A DNA stretch of 35,581 nt from Chiloscyllium plagiosum (lineage: Eukaryota): the NCBI RefSeq assembly GCF_004010195.1, contig NW_025213737.1, positions 1-35,581 of the forward strand, written 5' to 3'. Every line of letters begins with the position of its first letter. Position 1 is the first letter of the stretch. Positions 6,712 through 35,581 of the stretch are shown here, piece after piece. Under the pieces are notes generated by a model. That model was not told where the DNA came from. It ran no database searches and saw only the letters and a program-made list of their open reading frames with translations. Both the position numbers and the translations under genes were made by a program.

Positions 6712-6740
6712 ACAATCATTGAAATGGCATTCACCTGCAG
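6712..6740 (-). CDS. MAJIN: Candidate MAJIN micro-exon (29 bp, phase 1 to 0): (A)AGECHFNDC
   Basis: Strong acceptor ctgatttgtgtttcctttgtttcAG and consensus donor T|GTAAGT in non-repeat DNA. Open in the phase left by the 126-bp exon. No recognisable peptide similarity. Confidence 0.5.
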
Positions 6741-10414: not shown

Positions 10415-10540
10415 CTGCTAACGAATGCTGGTGATCTGACCTTAATTCAACATACAAGGTACAGACATACGGGTAAGAGATGAGGATTTTGTCACCTTGT
10501 TTAAACTGAAGTTCTGATAATCTTTCCCATTCATTTTTAT
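10415..10540 (-). CDS. MAJIN: MAJIN internal coding exon (126 bp, phase 1 to 1): (Y)KNEWERLSELQFKQGDKILISYPYVCTLYVELRSDHQHSLA
   Basis: Matches human MAJIN YKSKWERVSHLKFKHGEIILIPYPFVFTLYVEMK (recalled). The split codon T|AT rebuilds the conserved Tyr. Donor GCAG|GTAAAT; acceptor gtgtacaAG with a U12-like branch point. Confidence 0.93.
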
Positions 10541-10737
10541 CTTGTACACTGTTAAAGTGAAAACCATAAAGGAGAATCTGTTGCAAGCTGTCCCTTTGGC
10601 ATCAGTTATACTGAAATTAAATAAAAGGCATTCTAGCAAACTACACAGACATTACACAGCACACAATTATGAAAGAAAGGATTTGGTGCATTTATATTAG
10701 ACCTTTTACAACCTCAGGGTATTCCAAAGAATTTGGA

Positions 10738-11000
10738 CCATAAGACCACAAGATGTGGGAGCAGAAATTAGGCCATTCAGCCCATCGGGTTAGCTCCACC
10801 ATTCAATCATGGCTGATAAGTTTCTCAACTGCAGTCTCTCGCTTTCTCCCCCAAGGAGATCCCCTTGACACTCAAGAACCTGTCCATCTCAGACTTAAAT
10901 ATACTCAATGACCTGGCCTCCACAGCCTTCTGTGGCAGTGATAGATTCATCACTCTCCGGCTGAAGACATTTCTAAAAGGACTTCCTTTTACTCCAGGAA
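10738..11000 (-). mobile_element. CR1-type LINE 3' tail fragment
   Basis: ccataagaccacaagatgtgggagcagaaattaggccattcagccc, same family as 4270-4690 and 34790-35581. Confidence 0.8.
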
Positions 11001-11301
11001 TGAGTCACTTCTGAAGTCCAGTTACTAATGTATCGTAGGGAAACACGGCAAATGGTATGCACGCATTGAAGACCCTCAGGCAGCGCTGAAATAAATGACA
11101 GATAACTGATAGTAGTTAGTTGAGGAAGGACACCTAAAGGATATAGGAAGGCAGAGGCAACAAGAGTCACAGACATTAGAAAAATGGGAATAATCAGTGT
11201 AGAAAAGAATAGTTATTTAAAAGGGCAAATGGAAATACAGAGAATCACTAAGAGGATAGATGTAAAAAATTGGGGTAAACACTTTTTTTCCCATTGATTT
11301 G

Positions 11302-11620
11302 GGGCAGCATGGTGGCTCTGTGATTAGCACTGCTACCTCACAGCACCAGGGACCCGGGTTTGATTCCACCCTCGGGTCTGTGTGGAGTTTGCACATTCTC
11401 CCCATGTCTGGGTGTGTTTCCTCTGGGTGCTCCGGTTTCCTCCCACTGTCCAAAGATGTGCAGGTTAGGGTGAACTAGCCATGTTAATTTGCCCATATTG
11501 TTAGGTGCATTAGTGTGGGGTAAATATAGGGTGGGGGAATGGGTCTGGGTGGGTTACTGTTCGGTGTGGACTTGTTGGGCTGAAGGGCCTGTTTCCATAC
11601 TATAGAGAATCTAATCTAAT
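11302..11620 (+). mobile_element. Full-length HE1/V-SINE-like SINE
   Basis: gggcagcatggtggctctgtgattagc ... gggcctgtttccatactatagagaatctaatcta. Confidence 0.92.
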
Positions 11621-12009
11621 TCATACAAAACTATATCAAACTGAAGATTCAAAGGTAGAAGCTAAGTTTTTTTTTTAACAAAAGAATCATTCAGGTGTCA
11701 ATTGTAAAAAACAAAGAACTCCATGCACTGTGGACACCCAACAACATCGAAACAGACGTGAAACTGCAACTCTTGATGGCTGAATTGTACCAGAAATCCA
11801 CCATGTGCCATTTTGATGAGTCTCATGGTATATTTCTCTTTGTGAGGCCAGCAGGTTTCTAGCGCAAATGTTTCATACCCATCTCATTGCCTTATGCACC
11901 ATGCTCCCAAAGGTGACCTGCACATCCTATTCTGCCACTTGTCAGGACATGGCCGGGCCCTGATTGCTTGCACCTTGTTTGAAGCCCAGCCTTGACTTGA
12001 CTTGATTCT

Positions 12010-12345
12010 CTGGATGTTCATTCCACACATGAACCACTCTCTGTGTAAAAATGTAGTCCTTCATGTCCTTTCTGCTCTCACTTTAAAAATATGCCACCCT
12101 AGTCTTGAAATCCCTCACCACTGGGAAAAGACACCTGCCTTATCTATACCCCTCATGATTTAAAAAATCTCTATAAAGCCACCCCTCTACGTCCTACACT
12201 CTGGTGAAAAACGTCCAAGTCTATTTAGCCTCTCCCTTCCATTCCTGGCAACATCCTGGTTAATATTTTCTGAACCCTGTCCAGTTTGATAATATCCTTC
12301 CTGTAACAGGCTGACCAGTACTCCAGAGGAGGCCTCACCAATGTC
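12010..12345 (-). mobile_element. CR1-type LINE fragment
   Basis: ttcattccacacatgaaccactctctgtgtaaaaa and ccttatctatacccctcatgattt are reverse complements of CR1 ORF2 end motifs. Confidence 0.78.
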
Positions 12346-13989
12346 AGTCAAGCATTGGCAGTCCTGAGTTGTTATTCACCATGGATGTAATGGGAAAGCG
12401 ACCACAAATCAACACTCCCCTGGACACATAACAGACTCAGCTGACATTTCATTGCACACACAAGTCCACAGTTTCACATCAATTGCTGTTGAGGATGCAA
12501 GCCACAGTTATCCATAGGTAGCCCTATCCCATCTCAACACCCTATCTAAATGGCAGCTGCTCTTTCCCCAATGCCCAATGTAACTCAAACTCTTCCCACT
12601 GCTTAATGTGGGGCCATTACATACAGGGAAGCCTTCGAACGGTTCAAAACATTCATTTTCACTCAACAACAGTAGGAGTGAAAATAAAGAAGTAGAAGCT
12701 GTGTTTGCCTCTTCAAACAGCAACAGACTAAAGTGCTACACATCCCTTAACTGTGTCCAGTCCAGCGGTAGACTGACTTTCTTCATCCCCTGGACTGAGA
12801 TTAGATGACGTGCAAGATTTTCTGTGCCAGAACGTCTGAATGACAGCAGGCCTCCTTGACTTGACTTGACTTGACTTGGGTCCACTCTGCTTAAACTTTG
12901 AGACAGGGCTATGCACTATGCACGTGAATCATGTTTGCTACCTAGACTGCTGGCACATGCTGTATATCTGAGATTGGCAAAACATGGTGCCATGCAACAT
13001 GTCTGATCTGACCAATGCTGAAAAACTACATCAATCTTTATGTCTGAGCTAAATAGCAAGGCAGGATCAAAGTTCTTTGAGCCTTTAATCTCTGGTGAGG
13101 GAGCTAGCACCAAAGGCAGGGACGTTGTGAGTATTCAAGTTGGCACAAAAGCAGGATGCTGTGAGTATTTAAGCAAGCACAAAGTGAGTGAGCAATAAGA
13201 CAGTGAGTGAGTCAGCAGCCTCGAGATGCAGCCTGGTTCAACAGGGGCCTATCTCTGCATGCAAAGTGCCCTGGCAGCAGCAGTGCAATGAAAAACATAT
13301 GTGTAATCCAAAGTGGACCACTTAAAATGCATAACTGTATCATAAGTGGACTGGAAGTGTGTCACAACGATGTGGTGAGGCTGATATGTGTCTGATTCCA
13401 AGGTCCGTGGATGGGTAATGTGTGTGATAGCTGTCCGTGGAATGTACCCTGAGATGTTAATGCCTGGAATTACATTTGTAGCTTTCACTGTGACCCACTG
13501 AATCTCTGCCCTGTAGCATAGATTTACTCAATATCCTGCAGCACAGCTCCCACATTTATGCCACTGCTGTGGTGATCACTTAACCTCTGCTCCCACAATA
13601 TGGCATGTCCTCCCATGTGCTACGTTAAACCTCTTAAATGTCCAATTTTCCCTCTTCATCATTCTTGTCTCCTCTGCATCCTAGGTTGCTACCTCCAATC
13701 CAAAGCACCGATTTCCCCCAACATCCCTAGTACGGCAGTATTTCCTGATAATATCGCCACCACTCCTCCCACCATTGACTTTCAAAGCCTGAGATGTTGG
13801 TGCTTGGTATTCAAGGTGGAGGCCTGGAGGAGTAAGCAGTGAGCTGTAGTAACCAGGATACCGCTCTGACCTTCATACAACAAGAACATTCCTGCGCAGT
13901 ACAGGCCCTTCGGCCCTCGATGTTGTGGAACCAATCTGAAGCCGACCTATCCTTTCATGCTGAGGAGTCTAGTTTCTATCTAGCGGGTT

Positions 13990-14430
13990 GGAGAATTGAA
14001 TTAGCTTTATTGTCACATGTACTTGAATGAGTATAGCGAAAAGTTTACAAGTCGCTACTTATGACACCATCTTAGGTGCAAGATATCTAGGTACAGATAC
14101 TTAAATACTTGATACAAAATAGAAAAAATAATAAGTAAAAATTCGATCATAAGTATGAAAAGGAAAAGTAAAAAATAAAAGTATACAATTCACAGTCCTT
14201 CCACCCCAGCCCATGCCAGCATCTAGTCTCCAGACCACATCGGGCCAAGTCTCCAGACCATGCCAGACTCTGAAATGTGAAGCTTCGCCTCCAGTCCGGG
14301 CATTTGCCTCCAAGTTCATGCTGGTGACTCGCCTTCCCGCAACAGCCTCCAATCCATGTCTTGCCTCCAGTCCAGGGACTCGCTTCTCCGTGACAGCCTC
14401 CAATCCAGGACTCAGCTCAAATGCTTATTA
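13990..14430 (-). mobile_element. Non-LTR retroelement 3' end (Rex1/L2-like tail) with short internal repeats of about 50 bp
   Basis: Reverse-complement tail acatgtgacaataaagctaattcaattc. gactcgc...acagcctccaatcca is repeated at about 14326 and 14377. A similar tail occurs at about 28935-29060. Confidence 0.5.
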
Positions 14431-14624
14431 ATGAGGCAAGCTTGGATAATAAAAAATGGCAATACATGCTAATACATATAAAGAGGCCTCTCGCCTTTCA
14501 CAAGCAAGGAGTTTGTCTGTTCAAAACTTGGTTGAAAAATGGGACTTTTCACTATTGACAGCAAGAAACTTTTCACTGGTCATGTGACTTTACCTACTTT
14601 GTCATCGTGGCCCATCTCGTCAGG

Positions 14625-15229
14625 GCTAGAAGATTAGATTCCCTACAATGTGGAAACAGGCCCTCCGGCCCAACAAGTCCACACCGACCTGCCAAAGAGA
14701 AACGCACCCAGACCCGTTTCCCTCTGACTAAAGCACCTAACACTAGGGGCAATTTAGAATGGCAAATTCACCGAACCTGCACATCTTTGGAAACCCACGC
14801 AGACACAGGGAGATTGTGCAAACTCCACACAGACAGTCATCCAAGGCTGGAATCGAACCTGGGTCCCTGGTGTTGTGAGGCAGCAGTGCTAACCACTGAG
14901 CCACCCCTTTTTTTTGGTGTGGAAACAGGCCCTTCGGCCAACAAATCCACACTGACCCTCCGAAGGGTATCCCACCCACACCCATCCCCCTACCCTATTA
15001 TTCTACATTTACCCCTGGCTACTGCACCTTACCTACACACCCCTGAACGCTATGGGCAATTTAGCATGGCCAATTCACCTAACCTGCACATTTCTGGACT
15101 GTGGGAGGAAACCCACACAGACACAGGGAGAATGTACAAACTCCACACAGACAGTCACCCAAAGCTGGAATCGAACCTGGGTCCCTGGTACTGTAAGGCT
15201 GCAGTGCTAACCACTGGGCCATGGTGCCC
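14625..15229 (-). mobile_element. Two HE1/V-SINE-like SINEs in direct tandem (14625-14906 and 14917-15229)
   Basis: Two complete head/core/tail sets separated by a T-run. Flanking DNA has RTE-like character (DNITNVEVLHKA at about 15359-15396). Confidence 0.88.
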
Positions 15230-16408
15230 TCATTGAAAGATTCATTGAAACTGCCCATCTAATGCCAACAAGACATGGAAGAGAGTAGCAAAGGTGCCAT
15301 ATAAACCGCCTACCTTCCACTAGTGTTGCCTATGCAAAGTCCTGGGCATTACTTGAAGAGACAACATCACCAATGTTGAAGTGTTACACAAGGCACTGGC
15401 ACAGAGTGACAACAGACACTAACTAGCGGGTACGCATTCCACCTCAAGGGCCATCCGCCCTATTGGAGGGGCACTCGAATGGACACCCGACCTGGGAAAA
15501 GAAGGCATGGCTGGCCAAAAAGACCTGACAAAGTGCATTGAGATGGACCTTCAACAGTGGGACACCACTTTGGCTGGAGTAAAAGAGGCTATGACGAATT
15601 GAGTCTGGTGATAGGGATTTGCTGCATGTTATCTTGCATGGCACTGGAGGAACTAAACTGAAGTCAGTAAAGCAATGGCAAAATTGATGACAGCTTTTGA
15701 AACGGTAGTGCGTAAACATTAGAAAAAACACATAAGTAGGAGCTGGAACAGAGATTTAAATATAGAACTGTTTTAGTGAGTTGGCACAAGCATTTTGAGT
15801 CAATTTTTAAAAAGTCCTTACAGCAATGTGGGCTTCATTGCATTCTAGCATTAATTGCCCAGGCTGTTTACCCTTGAGAAGGTGGTGGTTAGCTGCCTTC
15901 TTGAACTGCTATAGTCTATTTGTGGAGGTAGACACAGAATGCTGTTAGGGAGGAAAGTCCAGGATTTTGACCCACCCAATGAAAGGTAATATATTTCTGC
16001 AGCGCATCTCATTGGTGGTACACACAGCTGCTTCTACGCATTGGTGGTGGAAACAGTGAATATTTGTGGATGTGGTGCCAGTCAAGTGAGCTGTATTGCT
16101 TTGAAGGCTTTCAAGGTTGTTGGATGTTCTGGAAGGTGCACTCATCCAAGCAAGTGGTGCATAGACTATCAGATCGGTGACTTGAGCCTTAAAGATGTTG
16201 ATCGGGCTTTAGGCAGTTAGGAGGTGAGTTACTTGTTGCAGGATTCCAAGTCTCTGACCTGGTCTTATAGCTAAGGTATGTATATATCTAGTCAAGTTCA
16301 TTTTCCGGTCAATGGTAAGCCCTAGCATGTTTATAACAGGGGAATCCAGTGATCATAATGCCATTGCAAATTAAGGGACAATGTTAGATCTCTTTCTTGT
16401 TGGAGACA

Positions 16409-16666
16409 TGATTCGGAGATGCCTGTGTTGGACTGGGGTGTACAAAGTTAAAAATCACACAACACCAGGTTATAGTCCAACAGGTTTAACTGGAAGCACA
16501 CTAGCTTTCGGAGCGATGCTCCTTCATCAGGTGATTGTGGAGGGCTCGATCATAACACACAATCGAGCCCTCCACAATCACCTGATGAAGGAGCGTCGCT
16601 CCGAAAGCTAGTGTGCTTCCAATTAAACCTGTTGGACTATAACCTGGTGTTGTGTGATTTTTAACT
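16409..16666. mobile_element. Hairpin-shaped non-autonomous Penelope-like element (family A) with a hammerhead on each arm
   Basis: Inverted arms of about 109 bp at 16442-16550 and 16562-16670. Direct repeat ttgttggagaca at 16397-16408 and 16667-16678. Confidence 0.88.
16579..16613 (+). ncRNA. Minimal type I hammerhead ribozyme motif
   Basis: CAC-CUGAUGA-A-GGAGC-guc-GCUCC-GAAA-GC-UA|GUG. Stem I CAC:GUG, stem II GGAGC:GCUCC, palindromic AGCU at stem III. Confidence 0.8.
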
Positions 16667-17007
16667 TTGTTGGAGACAGTCATTCTCATGCATTTGTGTG
16701 ATGCAAATGTTACTTGCCATTTGTCAGCCCAAGCCTAGATATTGTCCTGGTCTTGCAGTATTTAGACAGGCTGCTTCAGTATCTAGGATTTGCAAATCAC
16801 ACTGAGCATTGTGCAATCATTAGTGAACATCTCCACTTTTGACCTCATAATGGAGGGAAGGTCATTGATGAAGCAAATGAAGCTGATCGGGTCTAAGACA
16901 TTACTCTGAAGAACTCCTGTTGAGATATCCTGACACTGAAATAAATGACCTCCAACAACCACAACCACCTTCTTTTGTGCTATGAATGACTCTAAAGAAT
17001 GGAGAGA

Positions 17008-17342
17008 CAATGGTCTAATGGTAGACTACTAATCCAAAGACTCAGTTAATGTTCTGGGAATCTGGGTTGAAAATCTCATCATGTCAGATGGAATTTGAAC
17101 CCAACAAAAAAAAAACTCTGGGATTAAGAGTCTAGTGACGACTGCCAACTATCGGGAAAAACCTACCTGGTTTAATAATGTCCTTTAGGGAATGAAACTG
17201 CCACCCTTACCTGGCCAGGCCTACACGTGACTCTAGACCCTCAGCAATGTGGTTGACTCTTAATTGCCCTCTGGGCAATTAGGGATGGGCAATAAATGTT
17301 GGCCGAGCCAGAGATGTGCACATCCCATGAGTGAATTTTTTA
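17008..17342 (+). mobile_element. Second tRNA-derived SINE family (not named)
   Basis: tRNA-like head tggtctaatggtagactactaatcc ... gggttgaaaatct, body aatgtcctttagggaatgaaactgcc, tail gggcaataaatgttggcc. A degenerate minus-strand copy lies at about 17970-18330. Confidence 0.7.
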
Positions 17343-19162
17343 AAATTCCCATTGACTGCAGTATTTCTAGGCCTCCGCGATGTCAGATTCAGTCAAATGT
17401 GGCCTTGATGTCAAGGGCAGTCACTCTTAACTCACCTCTAGAGTTTAACTACTTTGTTCATGTTTGAACCAAGTTTATAATAAGGTCAGGGGCTGAGTGG
17501 CTCTGCGGAACCCAAACTGGATGCCATGGGGCAGGTTATTATTCGGCAACTGCTGCTTGATAACTCTGTTTATGACCCCTCCATCAATTTACTGATTACT
17601 ATGAGTGTGCTGATGGGCAGTAACTCGCTGAGCTTGTCCTGCTTTTCATATCAGGGGAATTTCCCATATTAGTGGGTAAATATCAGTGTTGTATCTGTAC
17701 TAGAACAACTTGCCTAAGGAGCTGTCAACTTCTGAAAGACAATTGCTGGCAGTACACTTCTGGGTTCATAGCTTTTTTGGCATCAGATGTTTCTTGATAT
17801 CACGTGGAGTGAATTGGGGTGAAAACTGGCATCTGTAATGTTGGGGACTTCCAGAGAAGGCTGAGATGGATCGTTTCCTCAGTTTTCCTCGCTGGAGGTG
17901 GGCTCACTTCTGCACTCTGATTCCGCAGAATCATTGAATACCCGGCATTGTAAGTGTCTCTTCTTTTAATTATTCACAGAGCATTGGCATCATTTGCAAG
18001 GACAAGTTATCATTGTCCTCAGGAAATTGCTGTTGAGCTGCCCTTTTGAAAATAACTGACTGGTTTATCAGATCATTTCAGATGGCAGCCAAGAGTTACA
18101 TACAGTCTGGAATGGGTAAGGATGGCAGATTTCCCTGAAGGACATTAGTGAATTGGATGGGTTTTTTATGACAATCCAATGGTTTCAATGTCACCATTAC
18201 TGAAACTAACTCTTTAATTCTAAGTATATTAATGAACTGAGTTTAAATTTTCCAGCTACAATGTGGGATTTGAACTCAAATCTGAATCATTAATTGAGGC
18301 CTCCAGATCATTAGTCCAGTAGGCTACCACACAAACACCATTTGCTCCATCAGACGCATACAGTAGTGCTAGTCCCTCACTCAATGACCAATTACAGCAC
18401 ACAAAGAGGCTATCTGGCCCATTGTGTCCATGCTAGCTCTCTGTAGATTAATCCAGTTAGTCACATATGTTGTATACCCTGTACACTTACTTCCTTCAAA
18501 CACTCAACCAATTGAAATCACAGTTTGTTTCTGTTTGTATTATCCTTGTAGGCAGCGAGTTCCCAGTTACTGCTGCTCCAATTCTATTCCTCTGCTTTAA
18601 CCATACACCTCTAACTATTTTCCTCCAGTGTTTATCTAATTCCCTCTTGAATACATGATTGGTTAAGCTTCAATAACCAGAGCACCCCTCGTTCTAATAA
18701 CATTTTGATGAGAATTTCCTTTCTGACCTGCCTCTCTCTGTTTTAAGTGCTAATGCTAAATGTACATATTATTCTTGACATTCAACCAGTGAAGATAATC
18801 GGTCTCAAAACCCTCGAAAGGTTTAAATAGATCCCCTCCTCTCATTCTGTCCAAGAACATATCACTAGTTGTCTTCCTTTCATCAGAAATGTATTTTCCT
18901 GCTTCCGCCTCAGCAATGCTAGGTCCTAGGTTTCCCTTTGAATCCTCGCTGTATAAAGACATGCACCAGCAGCACTGTATGTTACAGCCCGACAATTTTA
19001 CTAGTGTTTAACATAATTTACCAATGTGGTGGCCACTGGTAACCAGGTTGTGGAGCATCACTCTGTTCAAAACCTTAGTAACGTTCTTTCTATAACTCGT
19101 AAGTGGGTGGAAGCGCCCTCTTAAGTTCGATACGGCCCTTTTGATCAAGCTGCAAAGGATAC

Positions 19163-19238
19163 ATGGGAAGATGGTGAAGTGCTCTGTGGTAAATGGTTGT
19201 AACCTGTCCAGATTTCCAAGTACCGCACGGATAGCATC
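19163..19238 (-). CDS. MAJIN: MAJIN internal coding exon (76 bp, phase 0 to 1): DAIRAVLGNLDRLQPFTTEHFTIFP
   Basis: Acceptor ggtttgttgcAG, donor CCAT|GTATCCTTT. Close match to human MAJIN DSVRVVLGNLDNLQPFATEHFIVFP (recalled). Visible inside ORF 19008..19247. Confidence 0.93.
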
Positions 19239-20937: not shown

Positions 20938-21540
20938 GGGCTCTGTGTGTACATATCAGACCCAGAGACAGGACACTGTGTGTCTGGCCCAATGACAGGG
21001 TTCTGTGTCTGTGTGTGTGGCACAGAGACAGGGCTCTGTGTCTGTGTGTCTGGCCCAGTGACAGGTCTCTGTGTCTGTGTATTTGGCACAGAGACAGGGC
21101 TCTGGGTCTGTGCGTCTGGCCTAAAGATAGGGATCTGTGTCTGTGTGTCTGGCCCAGAGACAGGGCTCTGTATCTGTGTGTGTGGCACAGAGACAGGGCT
21201 CTGGGTCTGTGTGTCTGGCCTAAAGATAGGGATCTGTGTCTGTGTGTCTGGCCCAGAGACAGGGCTCTGTATCTGTGTGTGTGGCACAGAGACAGGGCTC
21301 TGGGTCTGTGCATCTGGCCTAAAGATAGGGATCTGTGTTTTTGTGTCTGGCACAGAGATAGGGCTCTGTGTCTGTGCGTCTGGCCTAAAGATAGGGATCT
21401 GTGTCTGTGTGTCTGGCCCAGTGACAGGGCTCTGTGTTTTGTGTGTGACCCACAGAGAAGGTTCTGTGTCTACGTCTGACCCAGAGAGAGAGAGAGCTCT
21501 TTGTCTGACTAAGATAGTTGGCTGTGTATCTGTATCTGGC

Positions 21541-22500: not shown

Positions 22501-22849
22501 ACTGTGTATCTGTGTTCCCTGGTCAAGAGGGCTCTGTGTCTAGTCCAGAAAGAGAGCTCTGTGTGTGTGTCAGATCCAGAGACAAAGGGCTGTGTGTCTG
22601 TGTTTCACGTCCAGCGAAAGAGGACTTTGTGTTTGTGTGTCTGGTCCAGAGTCAGAGTGCTCTGGGTCTGTGTGTGTGGCCCAGAGACAGGGCTTTGTTT
22701 TTGTCTGTCTGGCCCAGAGACAGGGCTCTGTGTCTGTGTATCCTGTCTCAGAGAGAAGGCTCTTTTTTTGTGTGTGTGGGCATTTGTCTGGTCCACAGAG
22801 AGAGGGCACTGTGTTTGTATGTCTGAAACAATGGAGACGTTTTGTGGAG

Positions 22850-24188: not shown

Positions 24189-26143
24189 CTGTAAGCCAGG
24201 AACCACTTCCCAAACTATAGTTCTTGACCATGTTGATCTTTCAAAGGAAAGGCAAGCTAACTCTCCATTGCCAGAAGGGATGCCCAGTAATGCCACAAGT
24301 AGGTCCATAATCTTCTGCACTCTCTATGGGTGAGTACCACCATCTTCTCTCTGCTACATCATGCTTACAAACAGAGCATTCCCTCTAACTCTACCCCCAA
24401 GGCGTATGGACTACAACTCTCAGTAGGTCCGCACAAGATCTCCCCACCACCACAAGCTGTCCCCTGACACTCAGAAGCAAGCAGAGGCTGACAGCCTGTA
24501 AGGTCAGTGAGTTCTAAGAAATTAGTGACAAGCAAACAGAGGCCAGCAGCCTCTAAATAAACACTAAAGGGAGTCAGTGCCTAGAGGTCTGCGACGGAGG
24601 TGCCCCTGAGCACAAATCAACCTAGCAGAAGCAAGTCCATTAGCTCCAGAGTAAAGTGTTGAAGGCCTGAAGTGGTGTCTGAATTGATCTGAGAGGAAGC
24701 TCGATGATTTTTGTGAGGCTGACAGTTTGCCGATGTGGATGGAAGGCGATGGACGACATTGGCCATGGAACGATGTTGGGATAGGGAGTGGCAATACAAT
24801 GGCCGGGACAGACACTTGGCAAACTGCAGCTTCCGGGTACCTGTCTGATTTACATGTTGGGAATTTGCATTGTATAGTTTCTCGATTAAGGAGAGGGGAA
24901 CTGCAGGTGGAACGTAAATAGGGCAAGTTGAAACTTCAATGAGTTGCAAATAACTTGGAAATAAGTTGGTCATTGCTAAGGGCAAAGAGGGGAAAATTGG
25001 GAAAACGTTTCTCGATGTTGAGAACCTAACTTATGAAAAACATTTTCACCCTATCTTGTCACCTTAGCAGGGAGGGGAAATTTTCAGCCAATGCACAGGG
25101 ATTACGCTGTGAGTAAAGAGTTCTTTCAGAAGATTCCTTGGTCTTAAGCAGTACTTTGGGAAACCAAATGGAATCAAATCCCATAGACACGGCAAAACAA
25201 GTGGGTTCAATATCAGAGGAGAAAGGATACTCACAAAAAACATTAAAATCAGATGCTGAACACCCAGACGAAAGATGGTTCTAATGTGTGGGAGGAACAA
25301 TACTTGCACAGAACATTGAAATCAGATGCAGAAACTGATGAAGTCAAGCATGCATTGAGTGGATGTTTCATCAGAGCTCAATAAATACAGTGCAGAGCCA
25401 GCAGTGTAAGCTGAGTTTACCAGCTGTGAACTTAATGGCACAGACACTGGAGAACAAATCCATTCAGTGCTTGGCAGTGTTCATTTTTTAATGGAAAAGG
25501 CTGAAACACTTCCCTATTTCTTTGTGAATGATATTCATGGAACATTGTAGCATATTCCAGTTTTAAGAATAAGAGGGCACTTTGGTTCAGGGTGTCTTTT
25601 AACTGGGAGGAACAATAAGGAATGTAGTGGTAGTAGGAGATCGCATAGTGAGTGGGACAATCACTGATCTAGTGCATTCAATTGAGTGAGTCCAGAAGGC
25701 TACATAGTGCTAGGGGTTTAGGACATCTGCTCAGGGCTGGATGGGAACTTGGAGTGAGAGGGAGAGGATCCAGTTGCCATATTCATGTAAGTACCATCAA
25801 CATAGGCTGGACTTTAAAAGAGATCCAGCTTAAATACAGGAGCCAGGCACTAAACTAAGTCACAAAAACTCCTGAGCAATAATCTTTGTACTATTATTAC
25901 TTGAAGAATGTACTAATTACAGAGGGAGCATAAGGTATTGCAATAAATACATCAAAGACTGCTGTGGAAGAAGTGGGTTCTGGTTTATGGAAAACTGGCA
26001 TCTATAGTGGGGAGAGTTGGCGCTATACTATTGGGATGGTCTGTGCCTGAATTGTGCTGGAACCAATGATCCAGCAAGCAATATATTAGGGAAGTAGAGA
26101 GGGCTTTAGATTAAACAATAGGAGTGAAGGATCAGGTTTGGAT

Positions 26144-28567: not shown

Positions 28568-30133
28568 ATAATGCACACTGAAGAAAATAAATATGATCTA
28601 ATTTCTGTGACAGAGTTGGCTGAATGGTGACAGGGATTGGGTCCTGAATATTGTGGGGTATATGACATTCAAGAAGAATAGGAAGCTGGGTAAAGGTGGA
28701 AGGAAAGCATGGAATTAATGCATTAATTAGACATGATCTTGGTTCAGGAGATTGGGATATGGAATTGGTTTGGGTTGACATTAGGAATAGTCAGAATGTT
28801 CTGGAACCAGCTAGACAGCAAACTATACTAGACTTGGTGGACTGTGTAAAATGACAGGATTATTTCAAGACCTCAGAGTAAAGTAACCCCTCTGACTGAA
28901 TTCACACTCAGTTTGAAAGGGAGACAGTGTTTGAGTTTGATTTATTGTTGTCACATGTGCCGAAATACAGTGAAAAGTGTCCTATATCAAGAGATTGAAG
29001 CAGACGAAGTGCATTAAGGTGGCAGAATAGAATGCAGAATACAATGTTACAGGGAAGGTGCAGAAGACTGTTCTTTTAGATTTAAATAAAGGCATGCCTT
29101 CTGCATGAAAGCTGAGTTAACTAAAGTGAACTGGCATCCTGGCTACGGAATTGATCAACTGAGGGCATTTAATGGGACATTTCAAAATAGTCAGAACAAT
29201 TATATTTATAAGGGGAAAAGCCACCATCTAGGTTTACGGAAAGCAGCTAAGAAAAGCATTAAACTTAAGAAAAAAAGTGTATAATTGCACAAAGTTGAGT
29301 GGCCATCAGATAACTGTACAGAATATACATTACAGCAGAGAATGTCTAATTATTAATAAGGATAAACAAATTAGAGTCTGAGAGGTAGCTAGCTAGAAAA
29401 ACAGATAGCAAGATGTTTTATCTACATGTAAAAATAAAAATGTCAATTGAGTGTTGCTTCTCCAGAGAATGAGAATGAGATGAAGAGGTCATTGTAGATA
29501 ATAAGGAAACAGCAGACAAATTTAACAAATATTTTGCATTTGTCTTCATTGAGGATACAGAGACATTCTAATTATATTTGCAAATCAAGAGGTGAAAGGC
29601 AGTGTCAAACCTAATGAAATTACAATCTCTAGGCAAGCTGGTGGTGCTGTAGCTGACAAGTCCCCACGTCCTAATGGACTTTATTCCAGGGTCTTAAAAG
29701 TGATGTTTAATGAGGTACTGGTGGGTTAGTATTGATTTTCCTATTTGCTAGATTCAGGAAAGTTTCCATCTGATTTGAAAGCAGCAAACATAACTCATCT
29801 GTTCGAGGAGGGTGTGGAAGGCAGGAAACACGGAAACTATATGCCAGTTACTTGATATCCATCTTGGGGATGTTGTCAGAATTGATCAATAGGAGTTTGT
29901 AACTGGGCACTTAGAATAACCCAAGGTTTTTGGGAACAGCCACTGTGATTTTGAGAAGGGAAAACGTGTTTAACTAATTTATTGAAGTTTTATCAAGGAG
30001 CAACATACAGGACTGCTGTAGACATAATGTTCTTGGATTTCCAGAAGGCATTTGAGAAGGCATTGCATAAAATGTTACTGAACAAAGTAGCAGCTCATGG
30101 TGTAGGGGACAGCATATTAGCATGGACAGAAGT

Positions 30134-30460
30134 GGGGTGGCACAGTGGCTCAGTGGTTAACACTGCAGCCTCACAGCACCAGAGACCTGGGTCTGAATCC
30201 AGCCTCGGGCAACTGTGTGGAGTTTGCATGTCATCCCCGTGTCTGTGTGGGTTTCCTCCGGGTGCTCCAGTTTCTTCCCACAATCCAAAGATGTGCAAGT
30301 TAGGTGAATTGGCCGTGCTAAATTGCCTGTAGTGTTAGGTGCATTAGTCAGGGGAAATGCAGAGGAAATAAGGGAATGGGTCTGGGTGGGTTACTCTTCG
30401 GAGGCTCGGTGTGGACTTGTTGGGCTGAAGAGCCTGTTTCCACACTGTAGGGATTCTAAG
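30134..30460 (+). mobile_element. Full-length HE1/V-SINE-like SINE inserted in CR1 RT
   Basis: ggggtggcacagtggctcagtggttaac ... gcctgtttccacactgtagggattcta. CR1 reads ...catggacagaag|attggttggct across it. Confidence 0.9.
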
Positions 30461-31156: not shown

Positions 31157-31202
31157 CTCCAATTCTTGCCTGACTTGCTCTCTGTCGATCCCCATGTCCT
31201 CC
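31157..31202 (-). CDS. MAJIN: MAJIN internal coding exon (46 bp, phase 2 to 0): (x)EDMGIDREQVRQELE
   Basis: Acceptor tttctctttccattggtttttccAG and donor GAG|GTAGGG on the minus strand. Peptide aligns to human MAJIN GEEIENKEVITQELE (recalled) and joins in frame to the 19163-19238 exon. Confidence 0.85.
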
Positions 31203-31742
31203 CTGGAAAAACCAATGGAAAGAGAAATGATACACGGTAACAGTCAGGATTAACAGCAATGGTTTTGCACATCTGTTTGAACAACTAGGTGCAGAATTAC
31301 TGAGCCCAGGGGATAAAGAAAGCAATTTATCAGATTGAACTGTGGGTTTCCAAATTTTTCTGTGTCTCACCACACGCAAGGGCAGCAGTACTAGTTTGTG
31401 TGACAGAATAAAAAACGCATTGTTAAAAAGAATTTAAATAATGAAGTGCTTCATAATGCAAGAGTGACTAGGTTCGCCCACTCACCCAAAACTCACCAGC
31501 TTGGATTTGCATTTTGTGCAAATGTCTTTCAAGTTGAAGAGAGACTGCTGCAGATAGTTCCAGTCAAGTAATTTGCATTCGGAGGAGGAAAGAGTCAAAC
31601 AGTTGTGGGACTTGGGAGTTTTTTTTATTCGTTTGTGGGATGTAGACTTTTCTGACTGGGCTGACACTCATTGCCCATCTTTAATTGTCCCCAGTGGTGG
31701 TGAACTGCCTTCTGCAACCCCTCACTCTAGTCCTGTTGGGCT

Positions 31743-32315
31743 GTCATGTTGAGGTTGTACAGGGCATTGTTGAGCCCACTGCTGGAGTACTGGGTCCAGT
31801 TCTGGTCGCCCTGTTATAGGAAAGGTATTATCAAGCTGGAGAGAGTTCAGGAAAGATTTACCAGGATGTTGCTGGGAATGGAGGGTTTGAGTTATAAGGA
31901 GAGGCTGAATAGGTTGAGATTTTTTTCACTGGAGTATAGGAGGTTGAGAGGTGACCTTATTGAGATTTATAATCATGAGGGGTATAGATAAGGCGAATGG
32001 CCGGTGCCCTTTCCCCAGGGGATTTCAAGACCACGGGATCTATTTTTAAAGTGAGAGGAGAGAGATTCAAAAAAATCATGAGGGGCATTTTTTTTGTTTT
32101 TACACAGAGTGGTTCGTGTGTGGAATGAACTTCCTGAGGAAGTGGTGGATGCAGGTACAGTTACAATGTTTAAACGACATTTAGGTAAGTAAATTAATAT
32201 GAAATATTTGGAGGGATATGGGCCAAGCGTTGGCTGATGGGAATAGTTTAGTTTGGGATTATGGTCGCCATGGACTGACTGGACCGGAGGGTCTTTTCCA
32301 TGCTGTATGACTCTA
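31743..32315 (+). mobile_element. CR1-type LINE 3' fragment
   Basis: ORF 31746..31991 contains LYRALLSPLLEYWVQFWSP...LERVQERFTRML...RRLRGDLIEIY. Confidence 0.92.
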
Positions 32316-34789: not shown

Positions 34790-35581
34790 ATGAATTCTTT
34801 GAGGTGGTAACGAGCAGGTTAGACCAAGGCGAGCCAATGGATATTATCTGTCTAGATTTCCAGTAGGCCTTTGATATGGTGCCGCACAGGAGGCTGCTGA
34901 GTAAGATAGCATGGATAGAAGATTAGCTGTCTGGAAGAAGGCAGGTCGAGTTAGTCGTTAGGAAAGCTAACACAATGTTGTCATTCATCTCGAGAAGTCC
35001 AAAACATAAAAGCAGGGATGTACTTCTGAGGCTTTATAAGAATCTGGTCAAACCACATTTAGAGTATTGTGAGCAATTTTGGACCCCATACACTGGTCCT
35101 GGAGAGGGCCCAGAGGATGTCCACAAGAACGGTCCCAGGAATGAAAGGCTTAACATAGGAGGAATGTTTGAGGACTCTGGGACTATACTCGATGGAGTTT
35201 AGAAGGATGAGGGGGGGGGGGGGGACAGAAAACTGAGTGGCCTAGACAGAGTGGACGTTGGGAAGATGCTTCCATTGGTAGGAGAGATGAGGACCTCAGG
35301 GCACAGCCTAAGAATAAAGGGAAGAATTTAGAACAAAGATATGGAGAAACTTCTTCAGCCAGAGAGCGGGGAATCTATGGAATTCATTGCCACAGAAAGC
35401 TGCAGAGGCCAGGTCATTGAGTAAGTTTAAAACTGAGATAGATAAGGTCTTGACTGCCAAGGGGATCAAAGGTTACTGACAGAAAATGGGGTTGAAAAAC
35501 TTATCAGCCATGACTGAACGGTGGAGCAGACTTGATGGGCTGAATGGCCTAATCTCTGCTCCTTGTCTTAAGGTCTTACGG
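34790..35581 (+). mobile_element. Internally deleted CR1-type LINE 3' portion
   Basis: LDFQ-AFD-VPH-RLL-K at about 34850, LYKNLVKPHLEYCEQFWTP (ORF 34975..35202), tail gatgggctgaatggcctaatctctgctcc. Confidence 0.9.

Follow-up and report, generated by a model that had tools for sequence, protein, structure and literature searches.

The gene for MAJIN in the shark Chiloscyllium plagiosum is interrupted, within its core domain, by an intron bearing the marks of the minor (U12-type) spliceosome. One question then is whether this intron is peculiar to the shark or belongs to an older architecture of the gene, and a second is what its presence implies for the supply of functional MAJIN. The sequence analysed here, hereafter the window, is a contig of 35,581 nucleotides (NW_025213737.1), and the intron runs on its minus strand from 19162 to 10541, a length of 8,622 nt with GT-AG ends. 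Taken together, its position and signals argue that it is almost certainly orthologous to the U12-type intron already known from human MAJIN, and that it was present in the ancestor shared by all jawed vertebrates.

The best protein match in the window is a 92-residue NCBI model of MAJIN from C. plagiosum (P0001), which is 100% identical, and four exons can be placed on the minus strand, numbered here by the protein of the sister species C. punctatum. Exon A (31157..31202; 46 nt) ends at c.147 and is followed by an intron of 11,918 nt with U2-type ends; exon B (19163..19238; 76 nt, c.148-223) and exon C (10415..10540; 126 nt, c.224-349) lie respectively upstream and downstream of the U12-type intron; and exon D (6712..6740; 29 nt), ending at c.378, is preceded by an intron of 3,674 nt, again with U2-type ends. 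Both pieces flanking the U12-type intron match the Pfam profile PF15077 (exon B, also matched by tblastn, with E=6.2e-10 and exon C with E=1.4e-10), their scores of 39.9 and 42 bits exceeding the cut-off of 27, which places them in the MAJIN domain, as a preliminary description of this locus had proposed. Exon C in addition matches the solved human MAJIN chains of PDB 6GNX, 6J08 and 6GNY and is 83-100% identical to nine shark and ray proteins, while the C. punctatum protein matches 6GNX with E=8.1e-42. The TERB2-binding domain of MAJIN comprises residues 1-110 as delimited in PMC6361898, and the U12-type intron falls about two-thirds of the way along it.

Searching the window by tblastn with nine proteins recovered neither the first coding exon nor the C-terminal region of MAJIN. 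In MAJIN the latter carries a basic patch and a membrane anchor, for which the same search found no matching exon in the window. The missing exons probably lie off the contig, which is the simpler reading because introns of 3.7-12 kb are here accommodated on a contig of only 35.6 kb. The NCBI models of both Chiloscyllium species end near residue 126-133, without the C-terminal region of other sharks, P0001 also lacking the first 36 residues, and the catshark and sawfish models carry unrelated C-termini. Since P0002 resides on a contig of 80.7 Mb, a contig end offers no explanation for its missing C-terminus, and the C-terminal anomalies in the set comprising P0001, P0002, P0004 and P0006 are probably errors of annotation, a real truncation being the less likely reading. 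The whale shark model P0003 contains an insertion of 16 residues matching 31234-31203 on the minus strand, just upstream of exon A, which suggests that the acceptor used in P0003 is an alternative one or was called wrongly.

The junction itself is tightly constrained. Exon B stops after the first base of a Tyr codon that follows Phe-Pro, so that the intron is in phase 1, and the two flanking pieces occupy positions 50-74 and 76-109 of the PF15077 profile, leaving only position 75 for the split codon. When 15,000 donor/acceptor pairs around both ends were compared, the annotated protein P0001 was reproduced by a single one, 19162/10541, and this exhaustive test excludes a shifted boundary at either end of the intron. 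P0001 and eight other shark and ray MAJIN proteins are also gapless across the junction, with the proviso that these nine are database gene models, among which a common prediction bias is conceivable; a search of sequencing runs with exon C listed none of RNA. The intron thus interrupts Tyr75 after c.223, and the preliminary description was right to place it within a conserved Tyr codon.

At this boundary the 5' splice site GTATCCTTT (19154..19162, minus strand) agrees at 9/9 positions with the extended U12 donor consensus RTATCCTTT and at 3/6 positions with the GTRAGT of U2-type introns. At the other end a putative branch site, CTTTAAC (10551..10557, minus strand), begins at -17 and differs by one mismatch from CCTTAAC, and so from the CCTTRAC pattern expected some 11-13 nt from the 3' end of a U12-type GT-AG intron; its As lie at -13 and -12, and the optimal branch distance according to the methods of PMC6717393 is 11-13 nt. 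The exact donor consensus and the branch-like motif 12-13 nt from the AG, both claimed beforehand from inspection, are therefore confirmed at a junction fixed by homology. The accompanying claim that a pyrimidine tract is absent needs to be divided. It stands for the last 13 nt, pyrimidines filling 5/11 positions at -14..-4, as against 7/11 and 10/11 in the two flanking introns, so that no strong tract adjoins the AG. It fails further upstream, where pyrimidines occupy 12/16 positions at -30..-15 in a run that overlaps the branch region and is closed by another AG, at -8 (10549..10550, minus strand), 3-4 nt past the branch As. The stretch leading to this AG is 8/11 pyrimidine and resembles a U2 acceptor, so that the AG could possibly act as a decoy of U2 type, shifting the frame if used. 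GT-AG introns of U12 type in general likewise show an extended donor, a branch 11-13 nt from the end, a weak adjacent tract and a non-zero phase; the shark intron shows no categorical difference from this class, the AG at -8 being a local detail.

How far such signals exceed chance depends on how they are counted. The donor 9-mer is weak evidence when taken alone and is by itself insufficient, because the window contains 2 copies against 0.41 expected, a number equalled in 5 of 100 shuffles; its weight derives from its placement at a junction independently fixed by homology. The 9-mer is carried by 2 of 4,102 GT sites, and 62 of 5,000 AG sites have a U12-like branch between -20 and -8, giving a joint chance of ~6e-6 on the assumption of independence, all of these counts being based on consensus motifs. 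The two flanking introns serve as an internal control, matching the U12 donor at 4/9 and 3/9 positions and the branch, at best, with 3 and 2 mismatches. The shark donor 12-mer (-3..+9) recurs in 14 cells of the human and mouse minor-intron table of PMC6717393, where the identical 12-mer is given scores of 94.0 in the mouse column and 97.6 in the human column, out of 100; the nearest branch tabulated there, that of mouse Fig4, has 9/12 positions in common with the shark branch, and its score of 68.8 barely exceeds the threshold of 65. The second perfect copy of the 9-mer, an occurrence near chance level, lies at 25222-25230 on the minus strand, which is that of MAJIN, inside the upstream U2-type intron and with no homology-supported exon found ahead of it. 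Two further U12-donor-like motifs, one starting with GT and one with AT, occur at 13861 and 11144 (minus strand) inside the U12-type intron. As none of these three stands at the end of a homology-supported exon, we put them down to chance.

Elsewhere in the window, tandem arrays occupy 1609-2010, 20976-21471 and 22535-22779, with periods of 53, 33 and 33-35 nt, and the long Cys/Val-rich open frames that the 33-nt arrays yield are not taken as genes. The open frames at 29955-30329, 31731-31988 and 34927-35199 resemble fragments of LINE reverse transcriptase, and a short interspersed repeat is present in many copies.

Whether this intron was already catalogued in other vertebrates had been left open in the preliminary description, which had also proposed its deep conservation; the human data bear on both. 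MAJIN is listed as a minor-intron gene in human and mouse, with testis-enriched expression, in the tables of PMC6717393, which place the minor intron of human MAJIN (C11orf85) at hg38 chr11:64949869-64950354, a length of 486 nt, and score the human and mouse introns at 98.7 and 96.5 for the donor and 76.0 and 69.0 for the branch. A second catalogue, Table S3 of PMC6800510, gives the human intron at hg19 chr11:64717341-64717826. The codon at which it falls can be derived from a donor variant, c.349+1G>T of MAJIN exon 6, reported in the main text of PMC11563684. An intron following c.223 would put c.349+1 at chr11:64717214, a prediction set beforehand, and this is where the supplement of the same paper locates a homozygous MAJIN splice variant, its row naming the gene and the position and the c. 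notation coming from the main text. The intervening human exon is therefore 126 nt long and spans c.224-349, so that the human intron follows c.223 in phase 1 of codon 75. Since residues 1-111 of the shark and human proteins form a gapless alignment, the two introns occupy the same codon in the same phase, and the proposed deep conservation is upheld as far as human. They share gene, position, phase, nine intronic donor bases and a downstream exon of 126 nt ending at c.349 (exon 6 in human); they differ in length, 486 nt in human against 8,622 nt in the shark, and in the base at which the branch departs from CCTTAAC, the second in the shark and the sixth in human.

The mouse Majin minor intron (chr19:6211680-6212127, 448 nt) is listed in PMC6717393 as shared with human and has the same donor 12-mer, an identical donor context that suggests the corresponding position in the gene. 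The U12-type intron of MAJIN is thus already known, having been catalogued in human, and its functional implication has been probed in mouse. Zebrafish, as quoted in PMC10639083, retains 91% of human minor introns, and such retention is the norm among fish. Our literature search found no paper on the shark MAJIN intron, and some supplements beyond its range may bear on the point. An online intron database by Larue and Roy reportedly covers more than 1,500 species. The ortholog work of Olthof 2024 takes in the elephant shark. No MAJIN row was found in the supplements of PMC7367187, PMC11347168 and PMC10639083 and no mention of MAJIN in the main text of PMC12077890, nor did we find a genomic coordinate for the MAJIN variant c.158G>A. 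Metagenome contigs scanned with the shark alignment gave 401 pattern matches, 0 of them confirmed, a blank that is uninformative on intron conservation because both scan patterns straddle exon junctions.

By established U12 biology, the donor and the branch site would be recognised together by the U11/U12 di-snRNP and the AG 12-13 nt past the branch A chosen by distance, the distal AG being used because that at -8 is too near the branch. With the intron removed, exon B would be joined to exon C within Tyr75, which would restore the N-terminal TERB2-binding domain. Given the U12 class of the intron, an in-frame MAJIN mRNA would need the minor spliceosome. Every route of failure breaks the frame: skipping of exons B and C removes 202 nt, retention of the intron adds 51 codons and then a stop, and use of the AG at -8 leads to a stop inside exon C. 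Functional MAJIN should thus depend on the minor spliceosome, a dependence that the preliminary description had proposed and that we consider likely, as read from the DNA. It also characterised U12 introns as often rate-limiting; for this intron such a role is a separate matter.

In its stronger form such a role would make the intron a switch, such that low activity of the minor spliceosome would lead to exon skipping, to retention or to use of the AG at -8, and so set the dose of MAJIN in meiotic prophase. Such a role, which is not exclusive of ordinary descent from the ancestral U12-type intron, would draw on the frame-breaking outcomes just described, and there are data in its favour: in PMC6717393 skipping of the two exons on either side of the human MAJIN intron (CAT2) is tabulated with an MSI of 0.56 in 1 of 8 tissue columns, which by column order is testis, and U11-knockout mouse spermatocytes show telomere defects according to PMC12956336. 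Yet the Majin variants that the same study records in U11-knockout testis involve changes that did not reach significance in its bulk RNA-seq, other genes with minor introns are expressed there in their hundreds (530 MIGs), the CAT2 row was found for human only and none for mouse in the tables concerned, and noise at two adjoining exons of weak definition would produce the same pattern. We therefore regard a rate-limiting or switch role as rather unlikely. Somewhat less probable still is the extension by which the two flanking exons would form an on/off cassette conserved across jawed vertebrates, the balance of U12 and U2 splicing setting the amount of functional MAJIN and hence telomere attachment at meiotic entry; with little activity of the minor spliceosome, both exons would be skipped, out of frame, by the major one, and in the shark the extra AG at -8 would offer a second exit.

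The same AG enters into the idea of a hybrid intron, removed partly or mainly by the major spliceosome by way of the AG at -8 with its pyrimidine run, or from a cryptic U2 donor. The U2-like character of the stretch before that AG would suit it, as would a GT at 19200 inside exon B that matches a U2 consensus at 6/9 positions. But the true donor agrees poorly with the U2 pattern, the AG at -8 gives a frameshift, no GTRAG occurs within 400 nt of either end of the intron, and the human ortholog is of U12 type in both catalogues cited (PMC6717393; PMC6800510), all of which makes a hybrid very improbable. That the locus is instead a decayed or truncated copy of MAJIN, its junction a mere prediction, would accord with the early ends of both Chiloscyllium models and the residues missing from the start of P0001. 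It is scarcely credible in view of four exons that are intact, in frame and bounded by canonical ends, of the close identity of exon C to the shark and ray proteins, and of the simpler placement of the missing exons off the contig.

Inheritance of an ancestral U12-type intron, the reading that we prefer, gives the MAJIN minor intron an age of at least the shark-human split, the intron remaining of U12 type throughout despite an ~18-fold difference in length. Vertebrate minor introns are expected to keep their U12 identity while changing in length, and the shark adds one data point to this. The case would matter more if skipping of the two exons were a regulated switch that sets the dose of MAJIN for tethering telomeres, since defects of the minor spliceosome would then be linked to a single, specific cause of failed meiosis.
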